Of a DNA stretch of 64,000 nt, positions 39,212-58,376 are shown in pieces. The translations under genes and the position numbers were made by a program. Under the pieces are notes generated by a model that searched no databases, was not told the origin of the DNA, and worked only from the letters and a program-made list of their open reading frames with translations. Source of the stretch: Gemmatimonadales bacterium (lineage in GTDB: Bacteria; Gemmatimonadota; Gemmatimonadetes; Gemmatimonadales; GWC2-71-9); assembly GCA_050732995.1 (NCBI GenBank), contig JBOHSA010000095.1, forward strand, positions 1,471-65,470, read 5' to 3'. Numbering within the stretch: the stretch's first letter is position 1; every line of letters begins with the position of its first letter.

Positions 39212-40160
39212 ATGTCGCGTTCGCGCTGGATAGTGTTCGGAGGTCTCCTGCTGCTGCTCGCAGCTGCCCTCTGGCTGCGCGGGTGTCCCGCTCACGCGGT
39301 GCGACTGGACGCGCTCCACGTGCCGCCCGGCTTCCACATCGCGCTCTATGCCGCTGCCGTCCCGGGCGCGCGGGCCCTCGCCCTCGGCGCGCAGGGGACT
39401 GTGTTCGTCGGGACGCGGGGCGTGGGGCGCGTGTACGCGCTGGTCGATCGCGACGGCGATCAGCGGGCGGATACGGTTTACACGCTGGCGCGCGACTTGA
39501 ACTCCCCCAACGGCGTCGCGTTCCGAGACGGCGCGCTGTACGTGGCGGAAACCCACCGCGTGGTGCGCTTCAATGGCATCGAGGCCCGTCTCGAGCGGCC
39601 GCCGGCACCGGTGGTGATCACCGATCGCCTCCCGCGGGAAGGACACCACGGCTGGCGCTATCTCGGGTTTGGGCCGGACGGGTGGCTCTACATCGGGTCC
39701 GGCGCGCCCTGCAACGTCTGCGACGCCCCCGACGAGCGCTTCGCGGCGATCCTGCGCCTGCGGCCGGACCCGGGCGGCCTCGGCCCGGAGATCTTCGCGC
39801 GCGGCGTGCGCAACACGGTTGGATTCGATTGGCATCCGGGGACGGGAGAGCTGTGGTTCACCGACAACGGCCGGGACTTGCTCAGCCCCGACCGGCCGCC
39901 GGATGAGTTGAACTGGGCGCCGCGGTCGGGCCTGCGGTTCGGGTTCCCCTTCTGTCACGGCCGGGACATCCTGGACCCCGAGTTCGCCCGGGAAGGTGCG
40001 GCCGCCTGCGCGGAGTTCGCGCCTCCGGAAATGGCGCCACGGAGTCAACCGGGAGGCGTGGGGACGGCCGGTCGATGTGCTGGTAATGCCGGATGGCGCC
40101 CTGCTGGTCTCGGATGATCGGGCGGGTGTCGTATATCGCATCAGTTATGAGAACCGGTAG
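39212..40160 (+). pseudogene. PQQ-dependent sugar (sorbosone/glucose) dehydrogenase, internally deleted and frameshifted
   Basis: Frame 1 (39212-~40035) gives family motifs (LNSPNGVAFRDGALYVAE, GHHGWRYLGFGPDGWLYIG, RNTVGFDWHPGTGELWFTDNGRD, FGFPFCHG, CAEFAPPEMA). The conserved C-terminal motif EAWGRPVDVLVMPDGALLVSDDRAGVVYRISYENR* is in another frame and ends at 40160. About 75-80 residues normally found between these parts are missing. Confidence 0.6.
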
Positions 40161-40308
40161 ATGGACAGCCAGGCGCGTAGGCGCACAGGCGCGTAGCGGG
40201 TTGGAGGATCCAGTTCACAGGAATTCCTAAACGCTGCTTCCTGGTACCCGCTGTGCGCCTTCGCGCTTACGCGCCTGACTGATAGCTTCTTGTCCTATCC
40301 TTGTACTG

Positions 40309-40893
40309 ATGGAGCCTGCCATGGCCCCCGAACTCAGCGAGTTTCTCTCTCAGTTGGAAGCCGTCAAAGCCGATGGTCGCGCCGTCGCTGCGGGCCTGTC
40401 CGAGGCCCAGTTCAATTGGCGGCCGGCGCCGGACCGGTGGTCCATCGGGGATTGTCTCGCGCATTTGAACGAGAGCGTGACGACGACCCTGCCGGCGTTC
40501 GACGCCGCCATCGCCGCGGGGCGCGCGCGAGGGCTCGTGAGTCCGGGACCGTACAAGTACGGCTGGTTCGCCAGCTGGATGGCGCGCTCCATGGAGCCGC
40601 CGCCCCGCTGGCGCATGCGCTCCCCCAGCGTCTTTCGCACGTCGCCGGCTCAGCGGCGGGCCGACGTCGTGGTGCCCGAATTCCTGGCGGTGCGCGATCG
40701 GCTGGCCGAGCGCGTACGTCGGGCCGACGGACTCGATCTGACACGCGTGCGGGTCACGTCGCCGGCGTCGCGGTTTTTCCGCCTGCCGCTCGGGGCCTAT
40801 TTCGGCTTCGTCCTTGGCCATGAGCGACGCCATGTGTGGCAGGCCCGCCAGGTCCGGAATGCGCCGGATTTCGGCGCCGAACGGGGGGCTTGA
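40309..40893 (+). CDS. DinB-superfamily (DinB_2-like) protein
   Basis: WRPAPDRWSIGDCLAHLNES... and C-terminal FGFVLGHERRHVWQARQV; these His-containing motifs are typical of the DinB/YfiT-like four-helix bundle. Confidence 0.72.
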   Translation: MEPAMAPELSEFLSQLEAVKADGRAVAAGLSEAQFNWRPAPDRWSIGDCLAHLNESVTTTLPAFDAAIAAGRARGLVSPGPYKYGWFASWMARSMEPPPRWRMRSPSVFRTSPAQRRADVVVPEFLAVRDRLAERVRRADGLDLTRVRVTSPASRFFRLPLGAYFGFVLGHERRHVWQARQVRNAPDFGAERGA

Positions 40894-40925
40894 CGTCCGG
40901 TGGGCGAGTGCTAGTTTTTTAGCAC
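40890..40925 (+). promoter_or_regulatory. candidate promoter (TTGACG ... TAGTTT) overlapped by palindrome GTGCTA-N6-TAGCAC
   Basis: TTGACG at 40890-95. GTGCTAGTTTTTTAGCAC at 40908-25. Lies 57 bp upstream of the BlaI-family gene start and is the only AT-rich patch in this interval. Confidence 0.4.
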
Positions 40926-40981
40926 TATGCTGGTTTCTTCGCAGCACCCGACGCCCGACGCAAACCCGGTGGGGCCGGCGC

Positions 40982-41371
40982 ATGGCTAACCCTGGGCGGG
41001 CGCATCTCAGCCGGCGCGAGCGCCAGATCATGGACGTGATCTACCGCCTGGGCCGGGCGACGGCCGCGGACGTGCTGGACAGCCTCCCCGATCCACCCGG
41101 GTACTCGGCCGTGCGCGCGTTGCTCCGCGTCCTGGAAGAGAAGGGGCATCTGAAGCACGAGCAGGAGGGACCCCGCTACGTGTTCGAACCGACCGTGCCC
41201 CGGGAGCTGGCCCGCCAGTCAGCGTTGCGGCAACTCGTGAGCACCTTCTTCGACGGCTCCGCGGAGCAGGCCGTGGCGGCGTTGCTCGATCTCCCGGCCG
41301 CCCGGCTCTCCGCGGCGGAGCTGGATCGGCTCGCGGGGATCATCGCGCAGGCCAAACGGGAAGGACGGTAA
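40982..41371 (+). CDS. BlaI/MecI/CopY-family transcriptional repressor
   Basis: ORF 40814..41371 trimmed to ATG 40982. LSRRERQIMDVIYRLGRATAADVLDSLPDPPGYSAVRALLRVLEEKGHLKHEQEGPRYVFEPTV is the typical winged-helix Penicillinase_R domain. Confidence 0.88.
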   Translation: MANPGRAHLSRRERQIMDVIYRLGRATAADVLDSLPDPPGYSAVRALLRVLEEKGHLKHEQEGPRYVFEPTVPRELARQSALRQLVSTFFDGSAEQAVAALLDLPAARLSAAELDRLAGIIAQAKREGR

Positions 41372-41374
41372 GCC

Positions 41375-43815
41375 ATGCGAGACCTGGTTGATGCCATCCT
41401 CGCGAGCGCCGTCCTGGGCGGCGGCGTCGCGCTGCTCGTGGACACGGCCGTGAAGGCCACGCTGCTCGTGCTCCTCGCTGCCGCGCTGACCGCCGTGTTG
41501 CGGCGCTCCGCCGCCTCGTTGCGGCACTTTGTCTGGTCGCTGACCGTCGCCGGCCTGGTGACGCTGCCGCTCGCGGCCCGGCTGTTGCCCGCCTGGAACG
41601 TCCCGCTGCTGCCCCGCTTCGTGCCCGCGTTCGACGCGGCGGCGGTGTCCGAGCCGCCGGCGCGACCTGCCATCGAGCAATCGCCGGCGGTCGCGACGCA
41701 AACGGCCCCCCCCCCTTCCCCCCTCCCGGTAGGGAAAGCAGTCGAGCTCGACGCGCCCGCGCCCGGCGCGTCCGGGGCGGAGCGGTTCCGGCTCAGCTTC
41801 GGGTGGACCGCCTGGGTCGTGCCGGTGTGGCTGAGCGGTGTGGCGCTGGTACTCGCCGGGATCGTGCTCGGGCTCGCGCGCTTGCGCTGGATCGCGCGCG
41901 CCGCCCGACCCGTGACGGACCCGGCGTGGGCGCGGCTGCTCGCCGAGCTGTCGCGCGAGATCGGAGTGTCGCGCCCCGTCACGCTATTGCGCAGCCCGGG
42001 GCCCGCGATGCCGATGACCTGGGGCGTCCGGCGGCCGGTCGTGCTCCTGCCGGCGGACGCCGACCGCTGGCCCGCGGATCGGCGCCGGGGCGTCCTGTTG
42101 CATGAGCTCGCCCACGTGCGGCGCCACGACGTCCTCACGCAGCTCGTCGCCCGGCTCGCCTGCGCCGTCTACTGGTTCCACCCGTTGGTTTGGGTCGCCG
42201 CCGCGCGGCTGCGCGTGGAGCGGGAACGCGCCTGCGACGATCAGGTCTTGCGCGCGGGCGCCCGGGCCTCGGAGTATGCGGGGCACCTACTCGAGATCGC
42301 GCGGTCGTTGCGCGTGGCGCCGGCGACCTCGCTGGCGAGCGTGGCGATGGCCCGGCCCTCTCAGCTCGCGACCCGGCTGCTGGACGTGCTCGACACGGGC
42401 CGGCGGCGGCACGGGGTGAGCCCGCGCACGATGGTCCCCGCGTGGCTCATCCTGGCGGCGGTCGTGCTGCCGCTGGCGGCCGCCGTTCCCTCACCGACAT
42501 CCGCCCCTCCCCCCGCTCCCCCCGCTCCCCCCTCCCCCCCCCCTCCCCCGGTGCCCCGACCGACCGGCTCCGGGAGGGAACCGAGCCCGCGGCCCTACTC
42601 TCGCTCGCGCCGTCCGCGCGGGCTGAGCGAGGCCGTCCCCGGGCCGCCGTGGAGGCGCCGCGGCCGGCGGCGTGGTCGCCGGACTCGCTGCGCGAGTGCG
42701 GCGGTGACCGGGTCAAGCGCAGCAGCACCAGCAGGACGGACAATGACGGCGCGGTCCAGCGGACCACCATCCGGACCCTGGTCGGACAGTGTGAGGTCCT
42801 GTTCCGCGCCGAGGGCAAGTTCACCTTCACCGCCGATTTCACCGACATCGCCACGGTCGCACGCGGCGGGGAAGTCATGGTCGAGGTGGATTACGGCCAC
42901 CGCGCGCGCCGGCTCGAGATCCGGCGCGGAGATGGCGCCGGCGGTCTCGAGCGCGAATACACGGTGGATCGCGCGGTCCGCCCCTTCGACGCCGAGGCCC
43001 GTGCCTGGCTGGCGGAGACGCTCACGTTTCTCCTGCGCCGCAGCGGCCTCTCCGCCGAGCAGCGGGCGCAGTGGATTCTCGAGCGCCGGGGGATCACCGG
43101 GCTCGTCGACGAGATTGCGCAGCTGCAGAGTGACTACGCACGGCGCCAGTACTATCAGACGGCCGTTGCGAGTGGCAAGCTCGATCCGGCCGGCTTCGAG
43201 CGCCTCGTCACGCGGGCGGGGCAGGAGATCGAAAGCGACTACGAGCTGGCCGAGCTGCTCATCGAAGTCGCTCGGCAGCAGCCGCTGACGGCGGGGCTGC
43301 AGGCCGGCTTCGTGGCCGCGGCCCGGACCATCGACTCGGACTACGAGCGGCGGCGGGTGCTCGACGTCGCGCTGGGGCGGCCCGGGCTCACGACCGAGGT
43401 GGCGGCCGGCATGCTCGGAGCGGCGGGGGAGATCGACTCCGACTACGAGCTCGCGGAGCTCTTGATCAAGCTCCAGCGCGCCCGCCCGATCGATGACGCC
43501 CTGCGGCCCGCCTACTTTACGGCGGTGAACACGATTCAGTCGGACTACGAGCATCGGCGCGTGCTCGGGGCGTTGCTGGACCAGCGGGAGCTCAGTGGCC
43601 CCGTGCTCGCGGCGACGCTGGAATCGGCGCGGGCGATCCGGTCCGACTTCGAGCTGGCGGAGCTGCTGGTCGCCGTGGCGCGGCGCCACCGTATCGACGC
43701 GAGCCTCCGCCCCGCGTTCGAGGAGGCCGCCAATACCATCGGCTCGAGCTACGAAAACGACCGCGTGATGGCGGCGCTGGCGCGGAGCCAGGGGCGCAGC
43801 CCCGAGCGCCAGTAA
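41375..43815 (+). pseudogene. BlaR1-like M56 peptidase/signal transducer with SDYE-repeat C-terminal domain, reading frame broken at a C-tract
   Basis: Frame A (41375 onward) gives TM helices and the M56 zinc motif LLHELAHVRRHD, up to ...AAVPSPTSAPPPAPPAPPSPPPPP. Beyond the C-rich tract 42501-42550 (which contains C10 at 42534-43), frame A turns Arg-rich nonsense. Frame B (ORF 42190..43815) carries the sensible continuation WSPDSLRECGGDRV...SDYELAELLI repeats. Adding one nucleotide in the tract would fuse the two frames. Confidence 0.65.
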
Positions 43816-43835
43816 CCCGCTTCCGAGGAGCGCTG

Positions 43836-46469
43836 ATGACGCGCTGGCCGATGTCCGCGGTGCTCCTCGCCGCGCTGGTCGTGCCAGGGTCGGCCGGCGG
43901 GCAGACCGCGCCGGCGCCACCGCCCCGCAAGCAGGCCCGCGCGCTGCGCCTCGACCGGGAAACGGTCCGGCTGGACGGCCGGCTGGACGAGGCCGCGTGG
44001 CGCCGGGCCGCGTGGATCTCGGATTTCGTCCAGAAAGAGCCGAACGAGGGCGCCGCCCCCACCGAGCGCACCGAGGTGGCCTTCTTCTACGACGCCGACG
44101 CGCTGTACGTGGGCGTGCGGGCCTATGCGGATGATCCGGCCAAGATCCAGGCCCCGCTGTCCCGGCGCGACAACACCGCCCAGGCGGAGCACGTCTGGAT
44201 CTCTCTCGACACGTACCTCGACCATCGCACGGCGTACTCGTTCGGCGTGACCGCGTCGGGCGTGCGGATGGACTTCTACCACGCCACCGACCGCGAGCAC
44301 AACGTAGACGGCCGGTTCGATCCGGTGTGGGAGGCCCGGGCGGCGATCGACTCGCTCGGCTGGACGGCCGAGCTGCGCATCCCGTTCTCCCAGCTCCGCT
44401 ACACCGCGAAGGACGCCCAGGTCTGGGGCCTTAACATCGATCGCTGGATTCCATCGCGGCGCGAGGACGTGTTCTGGATCCCCGTGCCCAAGAACGAAAC
44501 CGGCTGGGCCTCGCGGATGGGCGAGCTGCACGGGATCGAGCGGATCGCCCCCTCCCGCCGGCTGGAGCTGCTCCCCTACGCGGCGAGTAACGCGACGCTC
44601 ACCGGCGACCGCGATCCCGCGGACCCGTTCGACGACGGCCGGAACCTCGAGGCCCGTGCCGGCGCCGACATGAAGATGGGCGTCGGCCCCAACCTGACGC
44701 TCGATGCGACGGTGAACCCGGATTTCGGCCAGGTCGAGGCCGACCCCGCGATCGTCAACCTGTCGGCCTTCGAAGTCTTCTTCGACGAGCGCCGGCCGTT
44801 CTTCACGGAGGGGAGCCAGCTCTTCCCCTCCCGCTTTTTCTACACGCGCCGGGTGGGGGCCCGGCCGCGCGGCGCGCCGGTCGCGGACGACGACGACTAC
44901 GTGGACTATCCGGACGCCAGCACCATCCTCGGGGCCGCCAAGCTCACGGGGCGGCTGCGCTCGGGCACGTCGGTCGGCGTTCTCGCCGCGCTCACGGCCC
45001 GGGAGCGCGCCCGCGCCTACGACCCCACGACCGCGCGCGTCACGGAAACTGTGGTCGCGCCGGTCAGCGGGTTCGGCGCCCTGCGGACCCGACAGGAGAT
45101 CGGCGCCGACGCGTCGGTGGGCGGGACGCTCACCATGGTCCGCCGCGATCTCGCGGACGGCGACCCGCTCGCCGGGATCTACGCCCGCGAGGCGTACGGA
45201 GGCCGGCTGGACTGGAACCTGCGGTTCGGCCGGGACGCCTACGTGCTGGACGGGGACATCGGGTTTTCGCACGTCCGGGGCGACTCGAGCGTGTTGCTGC
45301 ACATTCAGGAATCGCCGGTCCATTACTTCCAGCGGCCGGATGCGGGCCACGTCGCGGTGGATTCGTCCCGGACCGCCCTCAGCGGCTATGTCGCGAGTCT
45401 CGCGTTCTCCAAGATCAGCGCTCGGCACTGGCTGTACGAGGTCAGCGTGGGCCGGGAATCACCCGGCTTCGAGCCTAACGATGCCGGCCGGCTCTCGAAC
45501 GCCGACGGGCAGAACGCGTTCGCCCAACTGCGGTACCGGGAGACGCAACCGGGCCAGACGTTCCACACCTACGAGCTGAGTTTCGAGACGGGTGGCGAGT
45601 GGAATTTCGGCAACGACCGGCAGTTCTACACCACGCGCTGGGACGCCAAGCTGACCTGGAAGAACTTCTGGGTGACGAACCTCACCTTCTGGATCGACCA
45701 CCCCTCGCAGAACCAAGCGCAGACCCGCGGCGGGCCCTCCATGGGCACGCCCCGCAGCCGGGTCGTGATCGCGCGACTGGGGAGTCGGCTCGGCGCGCGG
45801 ACGGCGTGGAACGGCCGGGGGTACTACGGGTGGGACGAGCTGGGCGGGGAGATCTACCGGCTGAGCGGCGGCCTGTCGGTGCGCCCCAGCACGCGCTGGC
45901 AGGTGTCGGTGGATCCGAACTACCTGCGCGTGATCGACCCGCGCCAGTACGTGGCCACGTTCGACTCGGGACCGGCGGCGACGTACGGCCGGCGTTACGT
46001 GTTCGCGTTCGTCGACCAGAGCGAGTTCCGGATCCCGATCCGGGCCAATTACACCCTCACCCCCGACCTGACGCTCGAGCTCTTCGCGGAGCCGTTCGCC
46101 GCGAGCGGCCGCTTCTACGGGTTCGGCGAGCTCGCGGCGCCCCGAACCACCCGGCTGCGCCGCTACGGCACCGATGGCACCACGATCGCGCGCGACCCCG
46201 CCGGGGACTACCTCGTGACCGACAACGGCGGCGCGGACACGCTCGCCATCGCCAACCCGGACTTCAACGTCCTGTCCTTCCGCAGCAACCTCGTGCTGCG
46301 CTGGGAGTGGCGCCCGGGGAGCACGCTGTTCCTCGTGTGGCAGCAAAATCGCCAGCACGACGACGCGCGCGGCGCGCACGTGGGGCCGGCCGATCTGATG
46401 GATTCGCTGCGGGCGACGGGGGACAACTTTCTGGCGATCAAAGCCAGCTACTGGATCCCGGTGCGGTAG
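43836..46469 (+). CDS. DUF5916/CBM9-like domain outer-membrane protein
   Basis: Signal peptide MTRWPMSAVLLAALVVPGSAGGQ. LDGRLDEAAWRRAAWISDFVQKEPNEGAAPTERTEVAFFYDADALYVG (CBM9-like), then VNPDFGQVEADPAIVNLSAFEVFFDERRPFFTEG and a long beta-rich C-terminus. This is the pattern I recall for DUF5916 proteins. Confidence 0.75.
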   Translation: MTRWPMSAVLLAALVVPGSAGGQTAPAPPPRKQARALRLDRETVRLDGRLDEAAWRRAAWISDFVQKEPNEGAAPTERTEVAFFYDADALYVGVRAYADDPAKIQAPLSRRDNTAQAEHVWISLDTYLDHRTAYSFGVTASGVRMDFYHATDREHNVDGRFDPVWEARAAIDSLGWTAELRIPFSQLRYTAKDAQVWGLNIDRWIPSRREDVFWIPVPKNETGWASRMGELHGIERIAPSRRLELLPYAASNATLTGDRDPADPFDDGRNLEARAGADMKMGVGPNLTLDATVNPDFGQVEADPAIVNLSAFEVFFDERRPFFTEGSQLFPSRFFYTRRVGARPRGAPVADDDDYVDYPDASTILGAAKLTGRLRSGTSVGVLAALTARERARAYDPTTARVTETVVAPVSGFGALRTRQEIGADASVGGTLTMVRRDLADGDPLAGIYAREAYGGRLDWNLRFGRDAYVLDGDIGFSHVRGDSSVLLHIQESPVHYFQRPDAGHVAVDSSRTALSGYVASLAFSKISARHWLYEVSVGRESPGFEPNDAGRLSNADGQNAFAQLRYRETQPGQTFHTYELSFETGGEWNFGNDRQFYTTRWDAKLTWKNFWVTNLTFWIDHPSQNQAQTRGGPSMGTPRSRVVIARLGSRLGARTAWNGRGYYGWDELGGEIYRLSGGLSVRPSTRWQVSVDPNYLRVIDPRQYVATFDSGPAATYGRRYVFAFVDQSEFRIPIRANYTLTPDLTLELFAEPFAASGRFYGFGELAAPRTTRLRRYGTDGTTIARDPAGDYLVTDNGGADTLAIANPDFNVLSFRSNLVLRWEWRPGSTLFLVWQQNRQHDDARGAHVGPADLMDSLRATGDNFLAIKASYWIPVR

Positions 46470-46494
46470 GGGGGGGGGGGAGGGGGGGGGGAGG
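46469..46494 (+). repeat. G12-A-G10-A-GG tract between convergent genes
   Basis: Read directly. It begins at the last base of the TAG stop of the DUF5916 gene and ends 22 bp before the stop of the convergent ada-like gene. Confidence 0.9.
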
Positions 46495-46515
46495 CCGGCC
46501 GGGGCGTCGAGCCGC

Positions 46516-47631
46516 TCAGGTCCGGTTTCCCGCTTCCAGGTCCAGCAGGGCTCGCTTGCGCTCGACTCCCCACCGATATCCCCCCGGCTCCCCGTCCTCC
46601 CGGACGACGCGATGGCACGGGATGACCAGGGCGGCGGGATTTCTCGCGCACGCCCGCGCCACCGCCCGGCTCGCGGTGGGAGTCCCGAGAGCCCGCGCCA
46701 CTGCCCCGTAGGAGCGGGTGCGGCCGTAGGGGATCTTGCGCAGCGCCTCCCAGACGCGGCGCTGGAACGCGGTGGCGCGCACGTCGAGCGGCAGCTCCAG
46801 TGGCGGCTCCCGGCCCGCGAGGTGCCGGAGGATGACCGCGACCGTCCGGGCCAGCCCGGCCGCGTCGCGCCGGATTTCCGCCGCCGGGAACTCGGCCTTG
46901 AGCTCGGCCGCGAGCTCCGCCGCGCCGTCGCCCAGCGCGACGCGGCAGATCCCGCGCGCCGTGGCGGCTACGAGCAACCGGCCCAGGGGGCGCGCGCAGG
47001 GCACGATCGCATACCCGATCCGCATCCCCCGTCCGCCGCGGCCATAGGTCGCGGGCGTCATGCCGAGTTGCGCGTCGGCGCGCTCGTACACCCGGCTGCC
47101 CGAGCCGTAGCCGGCGGCGTACACCGCCGGACTCACGCGCCGGCGCTCCCGCAGCTGGGTCTTGAGCCGGGTCAAGCGCCGCGCGTCCTTGTACTGGCTT
47201 GGCGTGATGCCGAGCACCCGGCGAAACACGCGCAGCAGGCGGTGCGGGCTGCAGCCCAGCCGCCGGCTGAGGCTCGCGAGTCGGGCGTTGGCGTCGGGGT
47301 GGGCGTCGAGCAGCCGACAGGCCTCCTGCACCAGGGCGACGGCAGGGTCCGCGCCGTTGCGCTGCTCGGGCCGGCAGCGCCGGCACGGCCGGAACCCGGC
47401 CAGCTCGGCCGCCGGCGGAGCGGGGAAGAAGGAGACCAGCGCCCGCCTGGGCCGCCGGCTCGGGCACGACGGCCGGCAGTAGATCCCGGTCGAGCGGACG
47501 GCGTACACGAAGGCGCCGTCGAACCGGCGGTCGCGACGCAGCACGATCCGCCAGGGCCGCTCGGACCCCAGCGCGGTCAAATCCGGGGCGGGATGCACAG
47601 GGGGAAACCTAGCGCGCCCCTCCCGCGCCAT
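46516..47631 (-). CDS. ada: bifunctional Ada-like protein (Zn-Cys methylphosphotriester acceptor + AraC HTH + O6-methylguanine-DNA methyltransferase)
   Basis: N-terminal Cys cluster (YCRPSCPSRRP...FRPCRRCRP), AraC-type HTH (LASLSRRLGCSPHRLLRVFRRVLGITPSQY), and a C-terminal MGMT active site VIPCHRVV. Confidence 0.88.
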   Translation of the reverse strand: MAREGRARFPPVHPAPDLTALGSERPWRIVLRRDRRFDGAFVYAVRSTGIYCRPSCPSRRPRRALVSFFPAPPAAELAGFRPCRRCRPEQRNGADPAVALVQEACRLLDAHPDANARLASLSRRLGCSPHRLLRVFRRVLGITPSQYKDARRLTRLKTQLRERRRVSPAVYAAGYGSGSRVYERADAQLGMTPATYGRGGRGMRIGYAIVPCARPLGRLLVAATARGICRVALGDGAAELAAELKAEFPAAEIRRDAAGLARTVAVILRHLAGREPPLELPLDVRATAFQRRVWEALRKIPYGRTRSYGAVARALGTPTASRAVARACARNPAALVIPCHRVVREDGEPGGYRWGVERKRALLDLEAGNRT

Positions 47632-47655
47632 CTATCCGATTCTGGCGGCCAAACC

Positions 47656-47924
47656 TCATATCCACTGCTCGTCCGCGGACGGGCCGTGGATGGACGGCAC
47701 CTGGCCGCCTGCCATCCGCAGATAGACCGAGAACTGGCCGCGGTGGTGCACCATGTCCATCAGCAGGAACCACAGAAAGTCGAGCCGCCGCACGTCGCCC
47801 ATTTGCTTCGGTCCGGTGAAGAACTTGACGGTCGTATTCAGGTAAGCGTCGTCCGCTTTCCGGACCTTGTCCCGTAGCCCCTGGAAGACGCCCATGTTCC
47901 GAGGAACTGCTCCTTCTCCGTCAT
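47656..47924 (-). pseudogene. DinB-family protein remnant (internal deletion with frameshift)
   Basis: A strong SD (AAAGGAGGAG) precedes ATG 47924, giving MTEKEQFLGTW and then a stop after 28 codons. A different frame (ORF 47656..47976) carries only the family C-terminus: ...FQGLRDKVRKADDAYLNTTVKFFTGPKQMGDVRRLDFLWFLLMDMVHHRGQFSVYLRMAGGQVPSIHGPSADEQWI. About 70 central residues expected for the family are absent. Confidence 0.6.
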
Positions 47925-47999: not shown

Positions 48000-48587
48000 C
48001 TAAGAAGTAAGCCCCGGCAGCGTCGGGCGACCCATCTCGCCGCGCACCTCGAGATGACGCCGGTCCTCACCACGAGCGGCCACCGGCCCTGAACCGCGCT
48101 TAGTCCCGGGCCCGGCCTCGGCCGTCTGCCGGTACACGGCGACCCCGTACCAGCAGGGATTCAGCCGGCACTCGGCCATGACGATCTTGACGCGGAAGCG
48201 TGTATCCGTCTGCGGCCGTACCTGCACGACGGCCGCGGCGCCGCTCGCGCGGTCCGCGGCCACCTCGTAATCGCTGTCATTGTAGAGCAGAATACTGAGC
48301 GCCGCGCAATCGCCGTCACACACGCCCAGGACCGCGTACTGTGCAGCGGGCTCCAGCGTCAGTGTGAACGAGCCCGATTCGCCGGTATCGAGCAGGCCCG
48401 CGTGATCGGCGGGGATCCGTTCGAACCCCGTGCGCGTGAGGGACCGCTGAGCCCGGGCCAGCCCGTTCTGCACCTGTCGAAGCCACCGGTTTCCCCGACC
48501 CTCCTCCCCTTCCTCTCTCTGGGCTGAAGCGCTTGCGGCGCCGAGCAGCGCGGCCGCGCTCAGCACGATCGGCCAGGCGCCGCGCAT
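48000..48587 (-). CDS. secreted hypothetical protein (last gene of the GntR-ABC operon)
   Basis: ORF 48000..49298 trimmed to ATG 48587 (TGATG junction with the upstream stop). Signal peptide MRGAWPIVLSAAALLGAASASAQ. Beta-rich body with Cys pairs (GVCDGDCAAL, AECRLNPCW). No family was recognised. Confidence 0.5.
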   Translation of the reverse strand: MRGAWPIVLSAAALLGAASASAQREEGEEGRGNRWLRQVQNGLARAQRSLTRTGFERIPADHAGLLDTGESGSFTLTLEPAAQYAVLGVCDGDCAALSILLYNDSDYEVAADRASGAAAVVQVRPQTDTRFRVKIVMAECRLNPCWYGVAVYRQTAEAGPGTKRGSGPVAARGEDRRHLEVRGEMGRPTLPGLTS

Positions 48588-49798
48588 CAGCGGGCCTGGC
48601 GGCGAATGGCCGCGAGCAGCGCGCTCAGGACCGCCACGCCCGCCAGGAGTACGCCCGTCACCCCGGCACTCAGGGGGGCGATCGGTCCCAGGGGCAGCCG
48701 CGGGGCGAAGCGCCGCTGCCAGCGCGCGGTCCATTCTCCCACGGGCGCCCGCAGCGCCGCCGCCAATGAGGGCTCGACAGCCAGCGGGGAATTCCAGAAC
48801 CGCAGGAATCGGTCGTGACCGACCTCGCGGACGACGTCCGCCAGGAATCGGTCCTCCTCCAGCAGGCGCTCTGCCCGCCACCACGAGGGCGTGATCGTGA
48901 CGATCCGGGGCAGGGAGTCCTCGACCCGATCCCCGGAGCCGGCCAGGACGGCGTCCTCGCAGCTGGTGGCCCTTCCCCCCAAGCAGCCGACCGCCGAGAC
49001 GGGCATTCCGCTGATACCGCTCCACCACCACCGTCCCGTCGCCGGATCGTGCACGAACGCGGAATGCCCTCCTACCTCGGCGGCCACGCTCGGACTCCAG
49101 TCGGGGACTACAGCGAGGGTGTAGTGCCGGGCTGCCAGCCAGCGCCGCGCCGGTCTCCCGGGCGTTCCGAACCCGGCATAGAACGCACATGGCCCGAGGG
49201 CGAGCTTGAGCCATTCGGCGAGCTGTTCGGTCCGTCTCGCGGGGACGATGGTCTGCAGCCACCGCTCCCATCGGTCCGCCGGGACGTACGCCACGCACGC
49301 CGCGCGATCGGTCGAATCAGGCAGCAGGTAGGACCGCGCGCGAACTATCTGCGGGTGGTTCGAGGCTGCGGGGGAGGGGGGGGGGGGCAGAGCCCCACCG
49401 GTTTCCAGGACGACGCCGACGGCGACTTTGGACACGCCGAGGTCGAGCGAGCGCCAAACGGCGTCGAGCGTCTGTCGCACTGTCCGCTCGAACTCTGCGG
49501 CGACATTCCCCTGTGTCCCCCCGGCGAACAACAACGCCGGGCCCTCCACGTCCGCGTGTCGGCGGCGCTCGAATTCGGGCTCCAGGCGGTTCCGGAACTG
49601 GGCGAGTCGGAGCGCCAGATCCATCTCGCGCCATTGCTCGGCGAGCGCTTGGGCCTGGAGGCGGGCGGCGGTCGGCGGCGCCGCCCGCGGCGTCCGGGAG
49701 CGGGGCGGGGATGCGCCTCGAGGTGGCAGGTAGGCCGCCGCGATCAGGACGCACACGGCCGCGGCACCGGCTCCCCACCAGGTCAGCTGACGCGCCAT
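48587..49798 (-). CDS. hypothetical bitopic membrane protein (paralogue of 49783-50904)
   Basis: ORF 48587..50503 trimmed to ATG 49798 (MARQLTWWGAGAAAVCVLIAAAYL, N-terminal TM). C-terminal TM LSAGVTGVLLAGVAVLSALLAAI. Its C-terminal module is shared with the upstream gene product. Confidence 0.5.
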   Translation of the reverse strand: MARQLTWWGAGAAAVCVLIAAAYLPPRGASPPRSRTPRAAPPTAARLQAQALAEQWREMDLALRLAQFRNRLEPEFERRRHADVEGPALLFAGGTQGNVAAEFERTVRQTLDAVWRSLDLGVSKVAVGVVLETGGALPPPPSPAASNHPQIVRARSYLLPDSTDRAACVAYVPADRWERWLQTIVPARRTEQLAEWLKLALGPCAFYAGFGTPGRPARRWLAARHYTLAVVPDWSPSVAAEVGGHSAFVHDPATGRWWWSGISGMPVSAVGCLGGRATSCEDAVLAGSGDRVEDSLPRIVTITPSWWRAERLLEEDRFLADVVREVGHDRFLRFWNSPLAVEPSLAAALRAPVGEWTARWQRRFAPRLPLGPIAPLSAGVTGVLLAGVAVLSALLAAIRRQAR

Positions 49799-52960: not shown

Positions 52961-53446
52961 ATGGCCGACAGCAGTGTGCACCGCCTCCTCGACCTCTATC
53001 CCCGCATCTTCTTCGCGTGCCACACCCGGCACGTGCGCGACCCCCAGTCCCGCACCCGGCTCAGCGCCCACCAGGCCGGCATCCTCGATCACCTGGACGA
53101 CGTGGAACCGACGAGCCTGACCGGCCTGGCGCGCCATATGGGCGTCACGGCGTCCACCATGTCGCTCGGCGTGGACCGGCTGGCCCGGCACGGGTACGTC
53201 GTGCGGGCCCGGGACCCCGAGGACGGCCGCCGCGTCCTGCTCCGGCTGACGGCGGCGGGCGCGCGGATCAAGGAGGCCCAGTCCGTGCTGGAGCCGGAAC
53301 GGGTGAGGGCGATGCTGGACCGACTGTCGGCCGACGAGCAGACACAGGCCCTGCGGGGATTGGGGCTCCTCGCGCAAGCCGCCGATGAGATGATGCAGGC
53401 CCGCAGCGCGGGCGCTCTCCCGCCCTCGGAATGGAGGTCGACATGA
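52961..53446 (+). CDS. MarR-family transcriptional regulator
   Basis: LSAHQAGILDHLDDVEPTSLTGLARHMGVTASTMSLGVDRLARHGYVVRARDPEDGRRVLLRLTAAG is the canonical MarR winged helix. Confidence 0.88.
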   Translation: MADSSVHRLLDLYPRIFFACHTRHVRDPQSRTRLSAHQAGILDHLDDVEPTSLTGLARHMGVTASTMSLGVDRLARHGYVVRARDPEDGRRVLLRLTAAGARIKEAQSVLEPERVRAMLDRLSADEQTQALRGLGLLAQAADEMMQARSAGALPPSEWRST

Positions 53447-53958
53447 AATGGGTCTTGATCGTGGTGGCAGCGGTCGTGGGGTTGGTCGGCGTCGTGGCGC
53501 TCGGCGGCGCGCTCCTGCCGCGCGGCCATACAGCCAGGCACACGGGTCGGTTCCGACAGCCGCCGGACTCCGTGTGGCGCGCCATTACCGACTTCGCCTC
53601 CGCGCCCTCGTGGCGCGCGGACGTGCGGGCCGTCGAGCGGCTCCCCGACCGGGACGGCCATCCGGTGTGGCAGGAGACCGACAAGCACGGGCAGCGGCTG
53701 CCCCTCGAGGTGCTCGAATTCGCGCCGCCGCGCCGCCTCGTGTTGCGCATCGCCGATCCGAAGCTTCCGTTCGGCGGCACCTGGACCTACGAGATCAGCC
53801 CCGTTGCCGCGGGTAGCAGTCTGACCATTACCGAGGATGGCGAGATCTACAATCCCATCTTCCGGTTCGTGGCCCGGTTCATTCTCGGCTACACGGCCAC
53901 GATGAAGGGCTATGTGCGAGCTCTCGGGCGCCGGTTCGGGGAGGACGTGGTTTCCTGA
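53443..53958 (+). CDS. SRPBCC-superfamily (polyketide cyclase/START-like) protein with N-terminal TM anchor
   Basis: ATGA overlap with the MarR stop. TM segment WVLIVVAAVVGLVGVVALGGALL, then PPDSVWRAITDFASAPSWRADV...TWTYEISPVAAGSSLTITEDGEI, which resembles SRPBCC. Confidence 0.65.
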   Translation: MKWVLIVVAAVVGLVGVVALGGALLPRGHTARHTGRFRQPPDSVWRAITDFASAPSWRADVRAVERLPDRDGHPVWQETDKHGQRLPLEVLEFAPPRRLVLRIADPKLPFGGTWTYEISPVAAGSSLTITEDGEIYNPIFRFVARFILGYTATMKGYVRALGRRFGEDVVS

Positions 53959-54004
53959 GCGGCTGTTTGCCGAGTCCCGGTGCACCCGCCAGATTGAAGT
54001 CTCC

Positions 54005-54454
54005 ATGACCTCCTACGTGCGAGCGCGGTACGACTCCGGGGAAACCGATCCCCAAAGGGGGGGGGGAGGGCCAGCCGTATCGGAGCGCTCCCGCGGCGTC
54101 GCGCTCGCGCTCGGCTTCATCGGCGGCGTGTTCGGTCTGCACCGCTTCTACACGGGCAAGATCAAGAGCGGTCTCTTGATGATCTGCACGTTCGGCGGGC
54201 TCGGTTTGTGGTGGCTGTACGACATGATCCTGCTCGCCACGGGTGAGTTTCGGGACGCGGACGATCTCCCCTTGCGAAACTGGAACGTCCAGGAGCCGCG
54301 CGGGATGGCCCGCGCGGCCGACCGGCGCACGGACGAGCTGGAAGAGCGCTTGGACGCGCTGCAGGGGGAGGTCGCGGAGATGCAGGAGCGGTTGGACTTC
54401 ACGGAACGCATGCTGGCCCAGCAGCGTGACCGCGATCGTCTGTCGAAGGGGTAG
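54005..54454 (+). CDS. TM2-domain membrane protein with C-terminal coiled coil
   Basis: ORF 53912..54454 trimmed to ATG 54005. GVALALGFIGGVFGLHRFYTGKIKSGLLMICTFGGLGLWWLYDMILL is the TM2 signature. The C-terminal helix is LEERLDALQGEVAEMQERLDFTERMLAQQRDRD. Confidence 0.8.
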   Translation: MTSYVRARYDSGETDPQRGGGGPAVSERSRGVALALGFIGGVFGLHRFYTGKIKSGLLMICTFGGLGLWWLYDMILLATGEFRDADDLPLRNWNVQEPRGMARAADRRTDELEERLDALQGEVAEMQERLDFTERMLAQQRDRDRLSKG

Positions 54455-54511
54455 GCCTGCCGGCTTCATCGAGCCGGCGTTCTAGGAACGCATCCACGCA
54501 CACAGGGGTTC

Positions 54512-55621
54512 GTGATGAAGGTTGGGGTTCCGAAAGAAACCGCCGCCGCCGAGCGCCGGGTCGCCCTGGTTCCCGACGTCGCCGCCCGGCTGGGCAAGGC
54601 GGGTCTCGAGGTGGTGATCGAGCGCGGGGCGGGCCAGTCGGCAACGTTCCCCGATGCCGCCTACGAAGCCGTGGGCGCGACGCTCGCGCCCACGGCGGGA
54701 GCGCTGTACGGAGCGGCCGACATCGTGCTCAAGGTCCGGCCGCCGTCTGCTGCGGAGGTGACGCAGGTGCGCGAGAGCGCCGCGCTCATCGGCCTGCTCC
54801 AGGCCGCGACGAGCCCGGACCTCGTGGCGCAGCTCACCCAGCGCCGCGTGACCGCCTTCAGTCTCGAGCTGCTGCCGCGGATCACGCGGGCCCAGCCGAT
54901 GGACGTGCTGTCGTCGCAGGCGACGGTGGCGGGGTACAAGGCCGTCCTGCTGGCGGCGCACGCCGCGCCGCGGTTCTTCCCGATGCTCGTGACCGCGGCC
55001 GGCACGCTTCCGCCCGCGCGCGTCCTCGTGCTGGGCGCGGGCGTCGCCGGCCTGCAGGCGATCGCCACCGCCAAGCGGCTCGGGGCGGTGGTCTCGGCGT
55101 TCGACGTGCGACCCGCCGTCAAGGAGCAGGTCGAGAGCCTGGGCGCGACGTTTCTCGCCCTGGAGATCCGGGAGGAGGCCGAGACTGCCGGCGGCTACGC
55201 GAAAGAGCTGTCCGAGGAGTCGCACCGCCGCGAGCTCGCGTTCATCGCCAGCCATGTGCAACAGGCGGACGTCGTGATCACGACCGCCCTGATTCCGGGG
55301 AAGCGGGCGCCCGTGCTCGTCACGCGGGACGCGGTGGCCGGCATGCGGCCCGGCTCGGTGATCGTGGACCTCGCCGCCGAGGCGGGCGGGAACTGCGAGG
55401 TCACGCAGGCGGGCGCCGAGGTCGCGGCGCACGGCGTCGCGGTGCTCGGCCCGCTGAATCTGCCCGGCACGCTGCCGCTGCACGCGAGCCAGATGTACGC
55501 CAGGAACGTCGCCAGCTTCCTGCTCCACCTGGTGAAGGACGGCCGGCTCGAAGTGCATCTCGACGATGAGATCACCCGCGGGACGTGTGTGACGCACGCC
55601 GGCCAGGTGCTGCGCCGGTGA
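54512..55621 (+). CDS. pntAA: NAD(P) transhydrogenase subunit alpha part 1 (PntAA-like; alanine dehydrogenase/PNT fold)
   Basis: MKVGVPKETAAAERRVALVPDVAARL..., Rossmann motif VLVLGAGVAGLQAIATAKRLGAVVSAFDVR, and ALIPGKRAPVLV. No pntAB or pntB follows. Confidence 0.78.
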   Translation: MMKVGVPKETAAAERRVALVPDVAARLGKAGLEVVIERGAGQSATFPDAAYEAVGATLAPTAGALYGAADIVLKVRPPSAAEVTQVRESAALIGLLQAATSPDLVAQLTQRRVTAFSLELLPRITRAQPMDVLSSQATVAGYKAVLLAAHAAPRFFPMLVTAAGTLPPARVLVLGAGVAGLQAIATAKRLGAVVSAFDVRPAVKEQVESLGATFLALEIREEAETAGGYAKELSEESHRRELAFIASHVQQADVVITTALIPGKRAPVLVTRDAVAGMRPGSVIVDLAAEAGGNCEVTQAGAEVAAHGVAVLGPLNLPGTLPLHASQMYARNVASFLLHLVKDGRLEVHLDDEITRGTCVTHAGQVLRR

Positions 55622-55659
55622 CCGCTGGCCTCGCCCGGTAGGGAGGCGCTCGTGGCAGG

Positions 55660-56090
55660 ATGCCCATGATCCCAGGCACCGCATTTGTGGCGACGCTCGC
55701 GCTCGTCGGCGTGGTCATCGTCGTTGCCGCGCTGCTCTCGGGGGTCGTCGAGCGCACGCGCTTCCCCCAGGTCGCGCTCTTCGTCCTGCTCGGTCTGTTG
55801 CTGGGCCCCTTCGGCCTCCGGATCGTCGATTTCCGCCTCGAACTCCGGCGTGCTTGCGACCATCGCCACGCTCGCCCTGGTCCTGGTCTTGTTCACGGAT
55901 GCGGTCTCGATCAACGTCGCGGAGGTGCGGCGGCATCGCACGCTGGCCCTGCTCGTGCTCGGTCCCGGGACGCTGCTCACGGCCGCGCTCGTTGCGGTCG
56001 CGGCGTGGGCGCTCCTCGACGTGGCGCCGGCTCCCGCGGCGATCCTCGGCGCGCCGCTGGCCTCCACCGACCCGGTGATCATGCGCGGCA
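55660..56090 (+). pseudogene. cation:proton antiporter (CPA1-type) remnant, frameshifted and 3'-truncated
   Basis: Frame 1 gives MPMIPGTAFVATLALVGVVIVVAALLSGVVERTRFPQVALFVLLGLLLGPFGLRIVDF. Near 55840 the sensible reading moves to another frame: SGVLATIATLALVLVLFTDAVSINVAEVRRHRTLALLVLGPGTLLTAALVAVAAWALL...LASTDPVIMRG. Homology stops about 140 residues in, whereas this family is usually over 400 aa. Confidence 0.55.
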
Positions 56091-56267
56091 GGCGGCCGGG
56101 ATGCCGGTGGCGCCCAGGCGGCGCTGATTCCCGCTCAGGGAGGCGGTCGCGTAATCATGCGGAGCGGCGCGTAATTATCCGATCTTGACGCTCCCGCCGC
56201 CGGGTCGGAGCTTTTTCAGGACGCGCCCATCCACGTGTCGAGTGTCACTCGAAGGAGGCTCCCCGTC

Positions 56268-57179
56268 ATGTGCCGGAATGCCCGTTCCCCCATCGTCGTC
56301 GTCGCTGCCGGACTCGCGCTCGCCGCCTGTAGCCGGCCGGACGGTGCCGGTACCGTCGCGGCGCCGCAGTTCGCCCATGTGCAGGATTTGATCGGCACCC
56401 CCGACCTGATCGTCGACGCCAAGAAGCTGGCGACCTCGTGGGTCGTGTACGACCAGGAGCTGAAGGAGTCGTTCTGCAGCATCGACGAAGCCGACCTCGC
56501 CCCCGGCCGGTACCGCGTGCTGCGATTCACCGTGAACACGCCGAACATCGGCGATGCCGACGTCTTCATCGGCAGCCCCTGGAAGCACATGGACCCGAAC
56601 GACGACGGGAGCTTCGCCGATTCCGACGGTCTGTATGAGGAGTCGACCTGCCACCGCCACTTCCATTTCCGCAACTACGCCCTGTACCAGCTGATCGACG
56701 CCGCGACGGGGAAGGTGTTCCGGGCCCGGAAGAACGGCTTCTGCATGATCGATATCACGCCCTGGTCGGAAGAGGTCCCCCCCGGAAGCTGGGTGTACCG
56801 AAGCTGCGGGAACTCACTGGTCCGAGGCTCGGGGTTTCAGGGAATCAGCGTCGGCTACGGCGACGAGTACTTCAAGTGGCTGGGCGGGCAGTACTTCGTT
56901 CTTGAGGGGGATCCCAACGCCGAGCCGATTCCCCCCGGGCAGTACCTGCTCCGGATCTGGGTGAACCCACCGTTCGTGGCGCGGGGCAAGGAAGTGTGTC
57001 CCGCCAAGGATCCCCAGGGCCTCTGCCACATGTTCGTGGAGAGCGACTACGGCAACAACATCGGCCAGGCGCTCATCACGATCCCGGCCGGGCGGCCCGG
57101 CAAGACGGGCTTCGGACCGGGCGGCGGCCAGCTGGCGCAGGACGAGGCGATCGACGACGAGAATCGGCCGAACAAGTAA
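56268..57179 (+). CDS. lysyl oxidase (LOX) catalytic-domain homologue, lipoprotein
   Basis: ORF 56235..57179 trimmed to ATG 56268, preceded by GAAGGAGG. Lipobox LALAAC. Motifs TCHRHFHF, RKNGFCMID, QGISVGYGDEY and ESDYGNNIG align with LOX copper-His, LTQ-Lys, LTQ-Tyr and C-terminal motifs. Confidence 0.8.
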   Translation: MCRNARSPIVVVAAGLALAACSRPDGAGTVAAPQFAHVQDLIGTPDLIVDAKKLATSWVVYDQELKESFCSIDEADLAPGRYRVLRFTVNTPNIGDADVFIGSPWKHMDPNDDGSFADSDGLYEESTCHRHFHFRNYALYQLIDAATGKVFRARKNGFCMIDITPWSEEVPPGSWVYRSCGNSLVRGSGFQGISVGYGDEYFKWLGGQYFVLEGDPNAEPIPPGQYLLRIWVNPPFVARGKEVCPAKDPQGLCHMFVESDYGNNIGQALITIPAGRPGKTGFGPGGGQLAQDEAIDDENRPNK

Positions 57180-57220
57180 ACTGAAGCCGTCTCACTCCTG
57201 GACTGAAGGCGACGCTCCCG

Positions 57221-58376
57221 TTAGACGCCTTTGATGATTTGTGCCGCCCGATGCGCAATCCCCATGATCGTGAGCATCGGGTTGACGCCCGAGGCTGAAG
57301 GAAAGACGCTGGCATCGGCGACGTACAGGCCGGGAACGCCCCAGACCTGGTTCTCCGCATTGACCACCGACGTGCGGGGGCTCGATCCCATCCGGCACGA
57401 CGCCATCTGGTGGTAGCTCGCGAGCAGCAGCTGGTTCGGTCCGAGCCCGGCGCCGTCGATCGCCGCGAGCCAGTGGGCGCGCGTTGACTCCCCGGGCCGG
57501 CAGGAGATCCAGCGGTGCAGCGGCGCGGTCTCGAACTTGAACCCGAACCCGCGGTCGAGGTCGGCGAACTGGCCGGAGTAGTGCGCCTGCAAGGTTCCCG
57601 TCCAGGGGCGGATCTCCTCGGGCATCAGCGCGAAGATCGCCGTGGCGGGATGCAACGCGAGAAACCGGCCGAGCGCCGGCAGCCGGATTCCGGAGCGGCA
57701 GAGCAGGGCGGGCGAGTGCAGCGCCCCGCCGGCGACCACCACGCAGCGCGCCCGCACGATCAGCCGGTGATCCCCCACGCGGGCCTCGACGCCCGCCGCC
57801 CGGCCCGCCTCGAACGACACCCGTTCCGTCATGGCCCCCACGACGAACCGGGCCCCCCGCGCCGCGGCATCCTGCAGCGGCCGCGGCGAGCTCGCCGGCC
57901 ACCACGCCCCCGCCCGCTCCGGAGCCGACGATCACGACGTCGCAATCGAGCGTAGTGTCACGCGGGATCGCGAGCGGCGTGATGCGTTTGGGGGTTGTCG
58001 GCGGCGGGCTCATCGGACCCGGATAGGCGATCCGCGCCCGGGCGGCGGCGGTCGTGTAGTGGACCAGGGTGATCAGCCGCTTGAGCGCCTGAAACCCTTT
58101 GCGGCGGAGCGGCAGGCGGCTTTCGGCCCAGCTCCGCAGGTAGCGCTCCCGCCACTCGACCGGCATGGCGCTGAACGGCCGGGGACTGCCGGTGAGCAGC
58201 AGGTTCGCGACGCGGCTCTCGAACAGCCGGAGCAGCCGCTCGAGCTCGGCGCGGTCCGTGGCGCCGGGCAGCAGCGCGAGCTTCGCCGCCACCCGATCCG
58301 TGAGCTCCGGCCCGGCCTCCGGGACGAGCGTCTCGGCGACGGCCCGGAGGCTCAGCGCGACCGGTGCCGCGGTCAG
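57221..58376 (-). pseudogene. GMC oxidoreductase fused to a subunit-3-like N-terminal domain, disrupted by internal deletion(s)
   Basis: The N-terminal frame (within ORF 57192..58652) reads LRAVAETLVPEAG...WRERYLRSWAESRLPLRRKGFQALKRLITLVHY...DCDVVIVGSGAGGGVVAGELAAA. Near 57880 the sensible reading jumps frame to LQDAAARGARFVVGAMTERVSFEAGRAAGVEA...(ORF 57221..57841)...YHQMASCRMG...LYVADASVFPSASGVNPMLTIMGIA. About 190 residues of the FAD/substrate domain are missing, and possibly about 80 more between FETAPLH and YHQM. Confidence 0.65.

Follow-up and report, generated by a model that had tools for sequence, protein, structure and literature searches.

Five genes lying between positions 39212 and 58376 of the window, which is the whole 64,000-nt stretch of DNA analysed here, were found to be broken. 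They are probably real, recent, lineage-specific pseudogenes of an uncultured Gemmatimonadales population that arose by ordinary spontaneous mutation. The source contig belongs to an NCBI Gemmatimonadales metagenome-assembled genome (MAG) with the locus tags ACREL9_056xx-057xx. Comparison with syntenic relatives of 84-91% identity revealed that all five genes are intact there. Under reference criteria such as those of PGAP and Pseudofinder, each of the five had an intact full-length orthologue at the syntenic position in close relatives and gave a split or truncated match to it, either in two frames or with segments missing; the ancestral state was an intact gene. The first-pass annotation had reported five broken genes in this region, and against the intact syntenic orthologues every disruption could be found where it had been described, including three out-of-frame internal deletions, in the GSDH/PQQ dehydrogenase (40030/31), in DinB (~47893-47900) and in the GMC oxidoreductase (57875-57877). 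Each of the five comes from a family that is represented by very many homologues in Gemmatimonadales.

The GSDH-type gene (PQQ-dependent sugar/sorbosone dehydrogenase-like; 39212-40160, plus strand) showed a partial Pfam GSDH/DUF7133 match. Its 5' part occupies 39212-40030, and its 3' part follows in another frame at 40032-40160. Compared with L013, 197 nt are missing, and the junction, between CCGGAA and ATGG at 40030/40031, has about 3-4 nt of homology. The frameshifted ORF reaches a stop at 40117 and encodes 301 aa, and the intact orthologues measure 388 aa in L013 and 398 aa in L001. Residues 23-292 of the L001 protein aligned to 39206-40027 (frame +2) and residues 358-398 to 40032-40154 (frame +3). 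The GSDH profile (PF07995) scored 33.2 bits in the window against a cutoff of 25, with a match confined to profile positions 111-225 of 332; by this curated cutoff the broken dehydrogenase is a predicted member of the GSDH family. The L013 orthologue matched TrAA12, DUF7133 and GSDH. The same deletion was present in a second MAG (L023). A gap in the NCBI locus-tag numbering falls at this gene, consistent with a feature having no protein.

The gene at 41375-43815 (plus strand) encodes a putative M56 metallopeptidase resembling BlaR1 (Pfam Peptidase_M56, positions 3-293 of 296) and adjoins a BlaI-type repressor gene. The M56 domain is intact from 41375 to about 42480 and is followed by a Pro-rich linker (42504-42550) with 9-nt repeats and a C10 tract (42534-43), beyond which a C-terminal 'SDYE/ELAELL' repeat domain continues in another frame to 43815. 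The product of the frameshifted ORF measures 637 aa. Homologues of 810-870 aa encoded by one ORF numbered more than 100; they covered 96-99% of the joined frames and, since they span both, the locus is one gene with a frame change; an intact orthologue of 868 aa is present in L013. The NCBIfam model blaR1_generic, whose cutoff is 400 bits, scored 102 and matched at positions 105-299 of 585 only. The M56 domain is complete, and the C-terminal penicillin-binding sensor domain of a BlaR1/MecR1 sensor-transducer is absent; the 'SDYE/ELAELL' domain is unrelated to that sensor and matches no Pfam family. As judged from its domains, the product would be an M56-family protein that is BlaR1-like in its protease half only. 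In the NCBI annotation, the C-terminal half appears as hypothetical protein ACREL9_05710.

The frameshift of this gene had earlier been placed at a homopolymer. The frame change itself was confirmed, and the C10 tract is a plausible site for it, but a scan of repair positions favoured no single position. The scan located the change within 42504-42620 as a flat plateau, on which the C10 tract scored no better than other positions, and nucleotide anchors (GSGREP in frame 1, AERG in frame 3) suggest 42583-42620. An independent Logan contig (L026) was identical across this zone. Some of the broken genes could nevertheless still function, in that the BlaR1-like gene might be phase-variable, with the C10 tract as its ON/OFF switch, or its two halves might act as separate polypeptides. 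Its frame changes within a slippery linker holding the C10 tract and 9-nt repeats, dN/dS is low in both halves (0.25 and 0.16), and NCBI annotates the C-terminal half as a protein. This reading is very improbable, however, as the tract is equally long (C10) in the window and in L026, homopolymers of at least 10 bases are common in the window within intact genes, the best repair positions lie downstream of the tract, and the C-terminal half, when the M56 half is absent, appears to lack both a signal peptide and a membrane anchor.

The DinB-family (PF05163) pseudogene (47659-47924, minus strand) retained a Pfam DinB match at positions 116-157 of 165 only. It keeps its RBS, the ATG at 47924 and 11 codons (MTEKEQFLGTW). 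About 223-226 nt are deleted (junction ~47893-47900), and the C-terminal 75-77 codons (47883-47659; residues ~88-162) are out of frame with the start. The N-terminal ~75 residues being deleted, the full four-helix bundle is no longer encoded. Orthologues of 162-163 aa are intact in L001 and L027, and Logan contig L019 matched without gaps across the lesion. The frames at 48593-49672 and 48111-48476 (minus strand) were considered as a further frame-broken gene and rejected; Logan gene calls give two abutting genes of 403 and 195 aa.

The Na+(K+)/H+ exchanger remnant (55660-56134, plus strand) matched Pfam Na_H_Exchanger at positions 2-37 and 37-121 of 375, in two frames. In line with the earlier description of a frameshifted and truncated antiporter, the N-terminal ~140 codons are left with one extra A at 55841, and a deletion of 1120 nt (junction 56083-56088) has removed codons ~141-482. 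An intact orthologue of 482 aa could be found in L014, and Logan contig L018 was gap-free across the lesion. The intact orthologue scored below the cutoffs of the K+/H+ and CPA1 models (110 vs 355; 57 vs 280) and has a C-terminal rhodanese-like tail; the assignment to the Na_H_Exchanger superfamily is clear, whereas one to the CPA1 subfamily would be tentative. On the 3' side of the remnant lie 52 nt of the former spacer between exchanger and GMC genes, in which the final ~21 nt of the GMC gene recur in degenerate form (56114-56134).

Blastn block order placed an intact lysyl-oxidase-like (LOX) gene block (56148-57178, plus strand) downstream of the exchanger remnant in the window and upstream of the exchanger in L014. 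The order in the window is derived, because the duplicated 3'-end fragment of the GMC gene adjoins the exchanger remnant. L027 was tried as an outgroup for polarising this order and discarded, having neither gene at that site. The swap is flanked by an imperfect direct repeat of ~19 nt (55634-55652 and 56129-56148).

The GMC oxidoreductase (long-chain-alcohol-oxidase-like) pseudogene (57224-58378, minus strand) matched Pfam GMC_N at 134-218 and GMC_C at 83-139 only. Its N part (58376-57879) keeps the FAD motif GSGAGGG; an out-of-frame deletion of 482 nt lies at 57875-57877, and the C part (57877-57224) carries a further in-frame deletion of 261 nt, absent from the first-pass annotation, between 14-nt direct repeats of which the retained copy starts at 57514. 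The GxGxxG motif is present, but neither GMC domain is complete. The L014 orthologue (P0121; 632 aa) is intact with both GMC_N and GMC_C complete, and more than 100 full-length homologues measured 620-640 aa. The start is predicted as TTG in L014 and CTG in the window. The gene has a paralogue in the window at 37.2-38.8 kb. Logan contigs L017 and L018, from two runs, matched gap-free across the GMC lesions.

It could be suspected that the deletions and frameshifts were made by an assembler, as the window derives from a MAG and the Logan contigs of both runs stop at identical positions (39653, 40172 and ~41700), which points to a non-trivial assembly graph. Against this, the Logan contigs come from a different assembler and two separate runs (SRR27067775 and SRR27067778), and together with the second NCBI MAG (GCA_975101925.1) they were gap-free across every lesion. 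The lesions are reproducible, and an assembly artefact, which had been raised earlier, is therefore rejected as scarcely credible. The Logan assembler uses k=31; junction homology was at most 6 nt in four of the five deletions and a 14-nt repeat in the fifth, all below typical assembler k-mers, and the contig break near 41700 falls at a C10 tract, not at a lesion.

Intact and broken alleles could also coexist in the population, the consensus having taken the broken ones. Strain variation is present: the two MAGs differ at 16 SNPs over 9.9 kb, a 6-nt indel and 8 mismatches separate the Logan contigs L021 and L022, and 39653-40172, around the GSDH junction, is covered by the second MAG only and by no retrieved Logan contig. 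The broken allele was nonetheless found in every retrieved assembly, and the lesions were common to the strain-level variants. Protein searches of a 5.8-billion-protein collection that includes these runs returned no intact GMC allele above 82% identity and no intact BlaR1-like allele above 78%. As broken alleles were assembled from each data set and the two protein searches yielded no intact allele exceeding 82% identity, the earlier suggestion of heterogeneity collapsed to a consensus is unsupported and quite unlikely, though minor intact alleles may exist. Since the lesions are shared by a second MAG consensus differing by 16 SNPs in 9.9 kb, they are older than the strain-level diversity; judging from the assemblies, they have reached fixation in the sampled population or at least predominate there.

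The dN/dS values of the broken genes were 0.05-0.25, with 0.41 for two short fragments, and those of intact neighbours were 0.07-0.25 (dS about 0.3-0.6). As broken genes and intact neighbours agree, the inactivations are recent and the genes were constrained until recently. The remnants did not show the raised dN/dS of relaxed selection; the low values are read as recent inactivation and do not conflict with the structural lesions. The deletion junctions carried 3-14 nt of homology, which is typical of spontaneous deletion. The longest is the exact 14-nt repeat GGTGCAGCGGCGCC, with copies 261 nt apart, and further junctions showed an imperfect 6-mer, GCG(C/T)GG, and CAG. Among the readings offered by the first-pass annotation, ongoing or recent gene decay in the lineage is thus the one that holds, given the intact syntenic copies in relatives, the spontaneous-type junctions and the lesions common to strain-level consensuses.

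The neighbourhood (BlaR1-like, Ada, DinB ... TM2, pntAA ... GMC, glyoxalase, OsmC, MFS, GIY-YIG, SURF1) is conserved in the more distant L027. No tRNA, Rfam family or large repeat was found in the window, and Pfam scans of the window found no integrase or transposase; hence the window is not a mobile island, and a mobile element as the cause was rejected on the same grounds. Between the broken genes lie 15 genes that are intact and constrained, and the 40 flanking genes are likewise intact and constrained. The first 39 kb had been described as undamaged, and indeed Pfam domains there are full length and all 17 genes tested at 15.3-36.2 kb gave a single full-length match in one frame against the close relative L029. 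A Plug-only ORF (30344-30748) was considered as a sixth broken gene, left by a TonB-dependent receptor that had lost its barrel, and was rejected as an intact small-protein family: exhaustive searching with HMMER returned hundreds of stand-alone homologues, 125-150 aa long, that align over their full length, and L029 has an intact orthologue of 130 aa.

The density of lesions had been called unusual and local, which was weakly borne out. All lesions fall within 30% of the window, and five random lesions in the window would fall within such a span with P = 0.02-0.045, a weakly significant value. The usual genome-wide pseudogene rate is 1-2%. Five broken genes of about 60 have P = 0.0004 at a rate of 1%, 0.007 at 2% and 0.18 at 5%. 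The count is thus high if the usual rate applies, and together with the clustering it gives a local cause some probability, though a low one. Such a cause would be a 19-kb hotspot of decay or mutation. It could reflect joint loss of use of a co-regulated stress and detoxification neighbourhood, as early niche-driven genome reduction in a free-living Gemmatimonadales, or one bout of error-prone double-strand-break repair, from which several microhomology deletions and the swap of gene blocks would have resulted inside these 19 kb. Apart from the clustering, five separate structural changes lie in 3 kb at 55.6-57.9 kb, including the LOX/exchanger block swap with its ~19-nt repeat, a density above that expected from simple independent decay, and all lesions are similarly young by dN/dS. 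We consider a local cause unlikely, however, as the significance is weak and the region was picked after the data had been seen, the 15 constrained genes lie intact among the broken ones, the broken genes share no pathway, and microhomology deletions belong to the normal spontaneous spectrum. We infer that the clustering has no mechanistic meaning.

In the preferred reading, ordinary spontaneous mutation would have disabled each of the five genes, which are dispensable and accessory and lie in a chromosomal neighbourhood that is old and conserved. The mutations are 1-nt indels and deletions (197-1120 nt) bounded by short direct repeats or microhomologies. Such genes would no longer be maintained by selection, and deletional bias would remove them; no special mechanism or element would be needed. 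The cause is probably relaxed selection on redundant genes, although no relaxation is visible in dN/dS so far. Bacteria have been described to accumulate pseudogenes after ecological shifts or bottlenecks (PMC9336565). The practical value of these results lies in annotation and quality control, as these MAG pseudogenes reflect biology and not faulty assembly. Pseudogenes appear to be under-called in the NCBI record, where only two loci lack a protein as judged from locus-tag and accession numbering. By the same numbering, protein calls seem to have been made for the DinB fragment and probably for those of the GMC and exchanger genes. The region also illustrates neatly how genes were lost very recently by short-repeat deletions in an uncultured soil-type lineage, and as a case of regional decay it would be of modest interest if a later genome-wide census showed the density to be local.

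Comparison with known systems indicated ordinary recent gene decay and no new kind of system. As in phase-variable contingency loci, the BlaR1-like gene has a C10 tract inside its frame-change interval; unlike in those loci, the tract length is invariant between assemblies (window and L026), such tracts are common in intact genes here, and the indel may lie outside the tract. The recently host-restricted Sodalis, Mycobacterium leprae and Shigella likewise carry many recent inactivations with recognisable remnants, but in this window no IS expansion or mobile elements were seen and the 40 flanking genes are intact and constrained. Bacterial pseudogenes are said, in the work of Lerat and Ochman in 2005 and Kuo and Ochman in 2010, to form by deletional bias. 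The window shows the same frameshifts, internal deletions and truncations of genes intact in close relatives, in young, lineage-specific, dispensable genes with deletions between short repeats. There is no essential difference from such pseudogenes, five in 19 kb of a presumably free-living lineage being weakly significant; the phenomenon is already known and adds no new principle.

The window had a G+C content of 71%, and therefore raw ORF lists were uninformative; a coding map was derived from codon usage, and stop-to-stop translations of each coding segment were scanned against Pfam (37–63 kb and 1–37 kb). The source assembly is an NCBI metagenome-assembled genome (MAG), in which the region of interest bears the locus tags ACREL9_05685 to ACREL9_05745. 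The ancestral state was taken from four syntenic relatives: L013, a Logan contig of run SRR22388289 (84% nucleotide identity; colinear with 36.6–44.4 kb); L014 and L029, two contigs of the NCBI MAG GCA_975196505.1 (85–91% identity; colinear with 54.1–64.0 kb and 15.3–37 kb, respectively); L001, from a Gemmatimonadaceae MAG (approximately 71% amino-acid identity); and L027 (GCA_044869265.1), a more distant relative.

The five disrupted genes reported by the first-pass annotation were confirmed, since their orthologues were intact in the syntenic relatives and the lesions were reproduced in independent assemblies. The GSDH-type dehydrogenase was intact in L013 (388 aa) and L001 (398 aa). Aligned to the window, residues 23–292 of the L001 protein matched 39206–40027 in frame +2 and residues 358–398 matched 40032–40154 in frame +3, and comparison with L013 revealed a 197-nt deletion at the junction CCGGAA|ATGG (40030/31) with approximately 3–4 nt of homology. 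The truncated 301-aa ORF was also present in locus L023 of a second NCBI MAG (GCA_975101925.1). The DinB (PF05163) remnant kept its ribosome-binding site and, from the ATG at 47924, 11 codons (MTEKEQFLGTW), after which the frame changed and resumed near residue 86–88 (47883–47659), giving a deletion of approximately 223–226 nt with its junction at 47893–47900.

In the M56/BlaR1-like gene, the M56 domain was complete in one frame and was followed by a repeat-rich C-terminal domain in another. This could be identified as one frameshifted gene because more than 100 homologues were single proteins of 810–870 aa covering 96–99% of the joined sequence, and L013 carried an intact 868-aa orthologue. 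The frameshift lies within a proline-rich linker, where nucleotide anchors suggested 42583–42620. The frameshift had earlier been assigned to a homopolymer; the frameshift itself stands, and the C10 tract (42534–43) is a possible rather than a demonstrated site, since a systematic one-base repair scan of the linker gave a flat optimum across 42504–42620. The window contained eight G or C homopolymers of at least 10 nt (10–12 nt, at 20420, 33451, 41706, 42534, 46469, 46482, 49376, and 54057) against approximately 2.6 expected. Several of them lie inside intact genes, encoding poly-Pro or poly-Gly, and the C10 tract at 41706–41715 was the breakpoint of Logan contigs in both runs. The 'SDYE/ELAELL' C-terminal repeat domain, which has no Pfam family, was missing one unit of approximately 66 aa (about 43620–43700) that is present in the homologues P0001, P0002, and P0004; the loss was in frame, between repeat units.

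GMC oxidoreductase homologues were 620–640 aa long, and the L014 orthologue had 632 aa. Compared to L014, the window gene had lost 482 nt out of frame at 57875–57877 (microhomology CAG). A second deletion, in frame and of exactly 261 nt, ran between copies of a 14-nt direct repeat, GGTGCAGCGGCGCC, of which one is kept at 57514–27. The predicted TTG start of L014 was replaced by CTG in the window (58376–58378, − strand), which may be one more lesion of this gene. In L014 this TTG overlaps the glyoxalase stop codon, and for glyoxalase the substitution is synonymous. The Na+/H+ exchanger, of 482 aa in L014, was reduced to approximately 140 codons with an extra A at 55841, and a 1120-nt deletion with imperfect 6-nt homology at the junction (56083–88) fused the remnant to the former downstream spacer. 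The most reworked stretch was the 3 kb at 55.6–57.9 kb, where, besides one insertion and three deletions, the lysyl-oxidase and exchanger blocks have changed places and stand in reverse order compared to L014 (55628–57247). An imperfect direct repeat of approximately 19 nt (55634–55652 and 56129–56148) was present on both sides of the exchanger remnant. The order in the window is derived, because a degenerate second copy of the last 21 nt or so of the GMC gene persists at 56114–56134, adjoining the remnant. Candidate mechanisms of the swap are transposition, or a tandem duplication followed by loss.

The adjacent gene at 54512–55618, labelled 'alanine dehydrogenase' by Pfam, was pntAA, the NAD(P) transhydrogenase alpha-1 subunit (NCBIfam PRK09424, 437 bits vs. 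cutoff 383). The pntAA-pntAB-pntB genes were contiguous in L027; at this site in the window and L014, pntAB and pntB were absent, and lysyl-oxidase and exchanger genes were found instead. With a dN/dS of 0.13, pntAA is still constrained, and is either an orphan subunit or has its partners encoded elsewhere.

An assembly artefact, one of the explanations offered earlier, could be rejected. Logan contigs, which were produced from single sequencing runs by an independent assembler, aligned to the window end to end with zero gaps: L017 (56468–61408), L019 (47467–54902), and L026 (41732–46447) from SRR27067775, and L018 (55043–59717) from SRR27067778. The second MAG (L023) was gapless with 16 mismatches over 30435–40376. 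No lesion was confined to the source assembly: each recurred in one or more others, and those of the GMC gene in two runs. Homology was at most 6 nt at four of the five deletion junctions, with the 14-nt repeat at the fifth; a k-mer assembler would not jump across homologies this short. Heterogeneity collapsed into a consensus was unsupported at the level of assemblies, as the independent assemblies carried the broken alleles and, in protein searches, the intact GMC and BlaR1-like alleles did not exceed 82% and 78% identity, respectively; minor alleles may still occur. At 40172–41703, Logan contigs of two runs differed from the window (L021, a 6-nt indel; L022, 8 mismatches) and from each other, with unequal BlaI gene calls (113 and 129 aa). 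The population thus shows microdiversity at the level of strains.

The first half was indeed undamaged: all 17 genes tested at 15.3–36.2 kb matched the relative L029 as single full-length hits in one frame, and Pfam domains were complete across 1–37 kb. All intact neighbours in the second half gave similar matches. A Plug-only ORF considered as a sixth remnant was rejected, as it belongs to an intact small-protein family. This secreted-looking protein of approximately 130 aa (30344–30748) has a weak Plug-like Pfam match, and its family is stand-alone, 125–150 aa long, with 892 representatives at E ≤ 1e-10 and no specific annotation. The claim of an unusual, local density was weakly supported. 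Within the 64-kb window, the chance of five random lesions falling in such a span was P = 0.02–0.045, so that clustering is suggestive at best; for five broken genes among approximately 60, P was 0.007 or 0.18, depending on an assumed genome-wide pseudogene rate of 2% or 5%.

Against the relatives, dN/dS was 0.05–0.25 for the broken genes (0.41 for two short fragments) and 0.07–0.25 for intact neighbours at dS of approximately 0.3–0.6. The broken genes thus remained under purifying selection through most of this divergence, and their inactivation is recent yet older than the present strain-level diversity (0.1–0.2%). The gene neighbourhood is old, with the order BlaR1-like, Ada, DinB ... TM2, pntAA ... 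GMC, glyoxalase, OsmC, MFS, GIY-YIG, SURF1 common to L027 and the window. Its content varies among Gemmatimonadales lineages, because L001 (3900–7000) lacks BlaI, the BlaR1-like gene, and ada, which are present in the window (40900–47650) and L027. A mobile island was rejected: the window was free of tRNA genes, Rfam families and long repeats, and the Pfam scans (1–37 kb and 37–63 kb) gave no match to a transposase or integrase. The region is a chromosomal accessory neighbourhood.

At NCBI, the C-terminal half of the BlaR1-like gene (42649–43815) is a separate 'hypothetical protein', ACREL9_05710. Judged from accession numbers, the DinB fragment also appears to be annotated as a protein, as probably are the GMC and exchanger fragments; just two loci, the N-terminal half of the BlaR1-like gene and the GSDH gene, seem to be without one.

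The deletions (3–6 nt of microhomology, one 14-nt direct repeat) and 1-nt indels fit the normal spontaneous spectrum of replication slippage or illegitimate recombination, and the mutations would have struck genes that selection had ceased to maintain. We infer such relaxed selection, rather than demonstrate it, from the large gene families, the GMC paralogue (37.2–38.8 kb), and the fact that the genes are accessory. The gene-decay reading was right, given intact orthologues in relatives, agreement of independent assemblies, and junctions of spontaneous type. Prokaryotic genomes usually carry very few pseudogenes, which build up after ecological shifts or bottlenecks (PMC9336565). The decay described here is ordinary pseudogene formation, a process already known.
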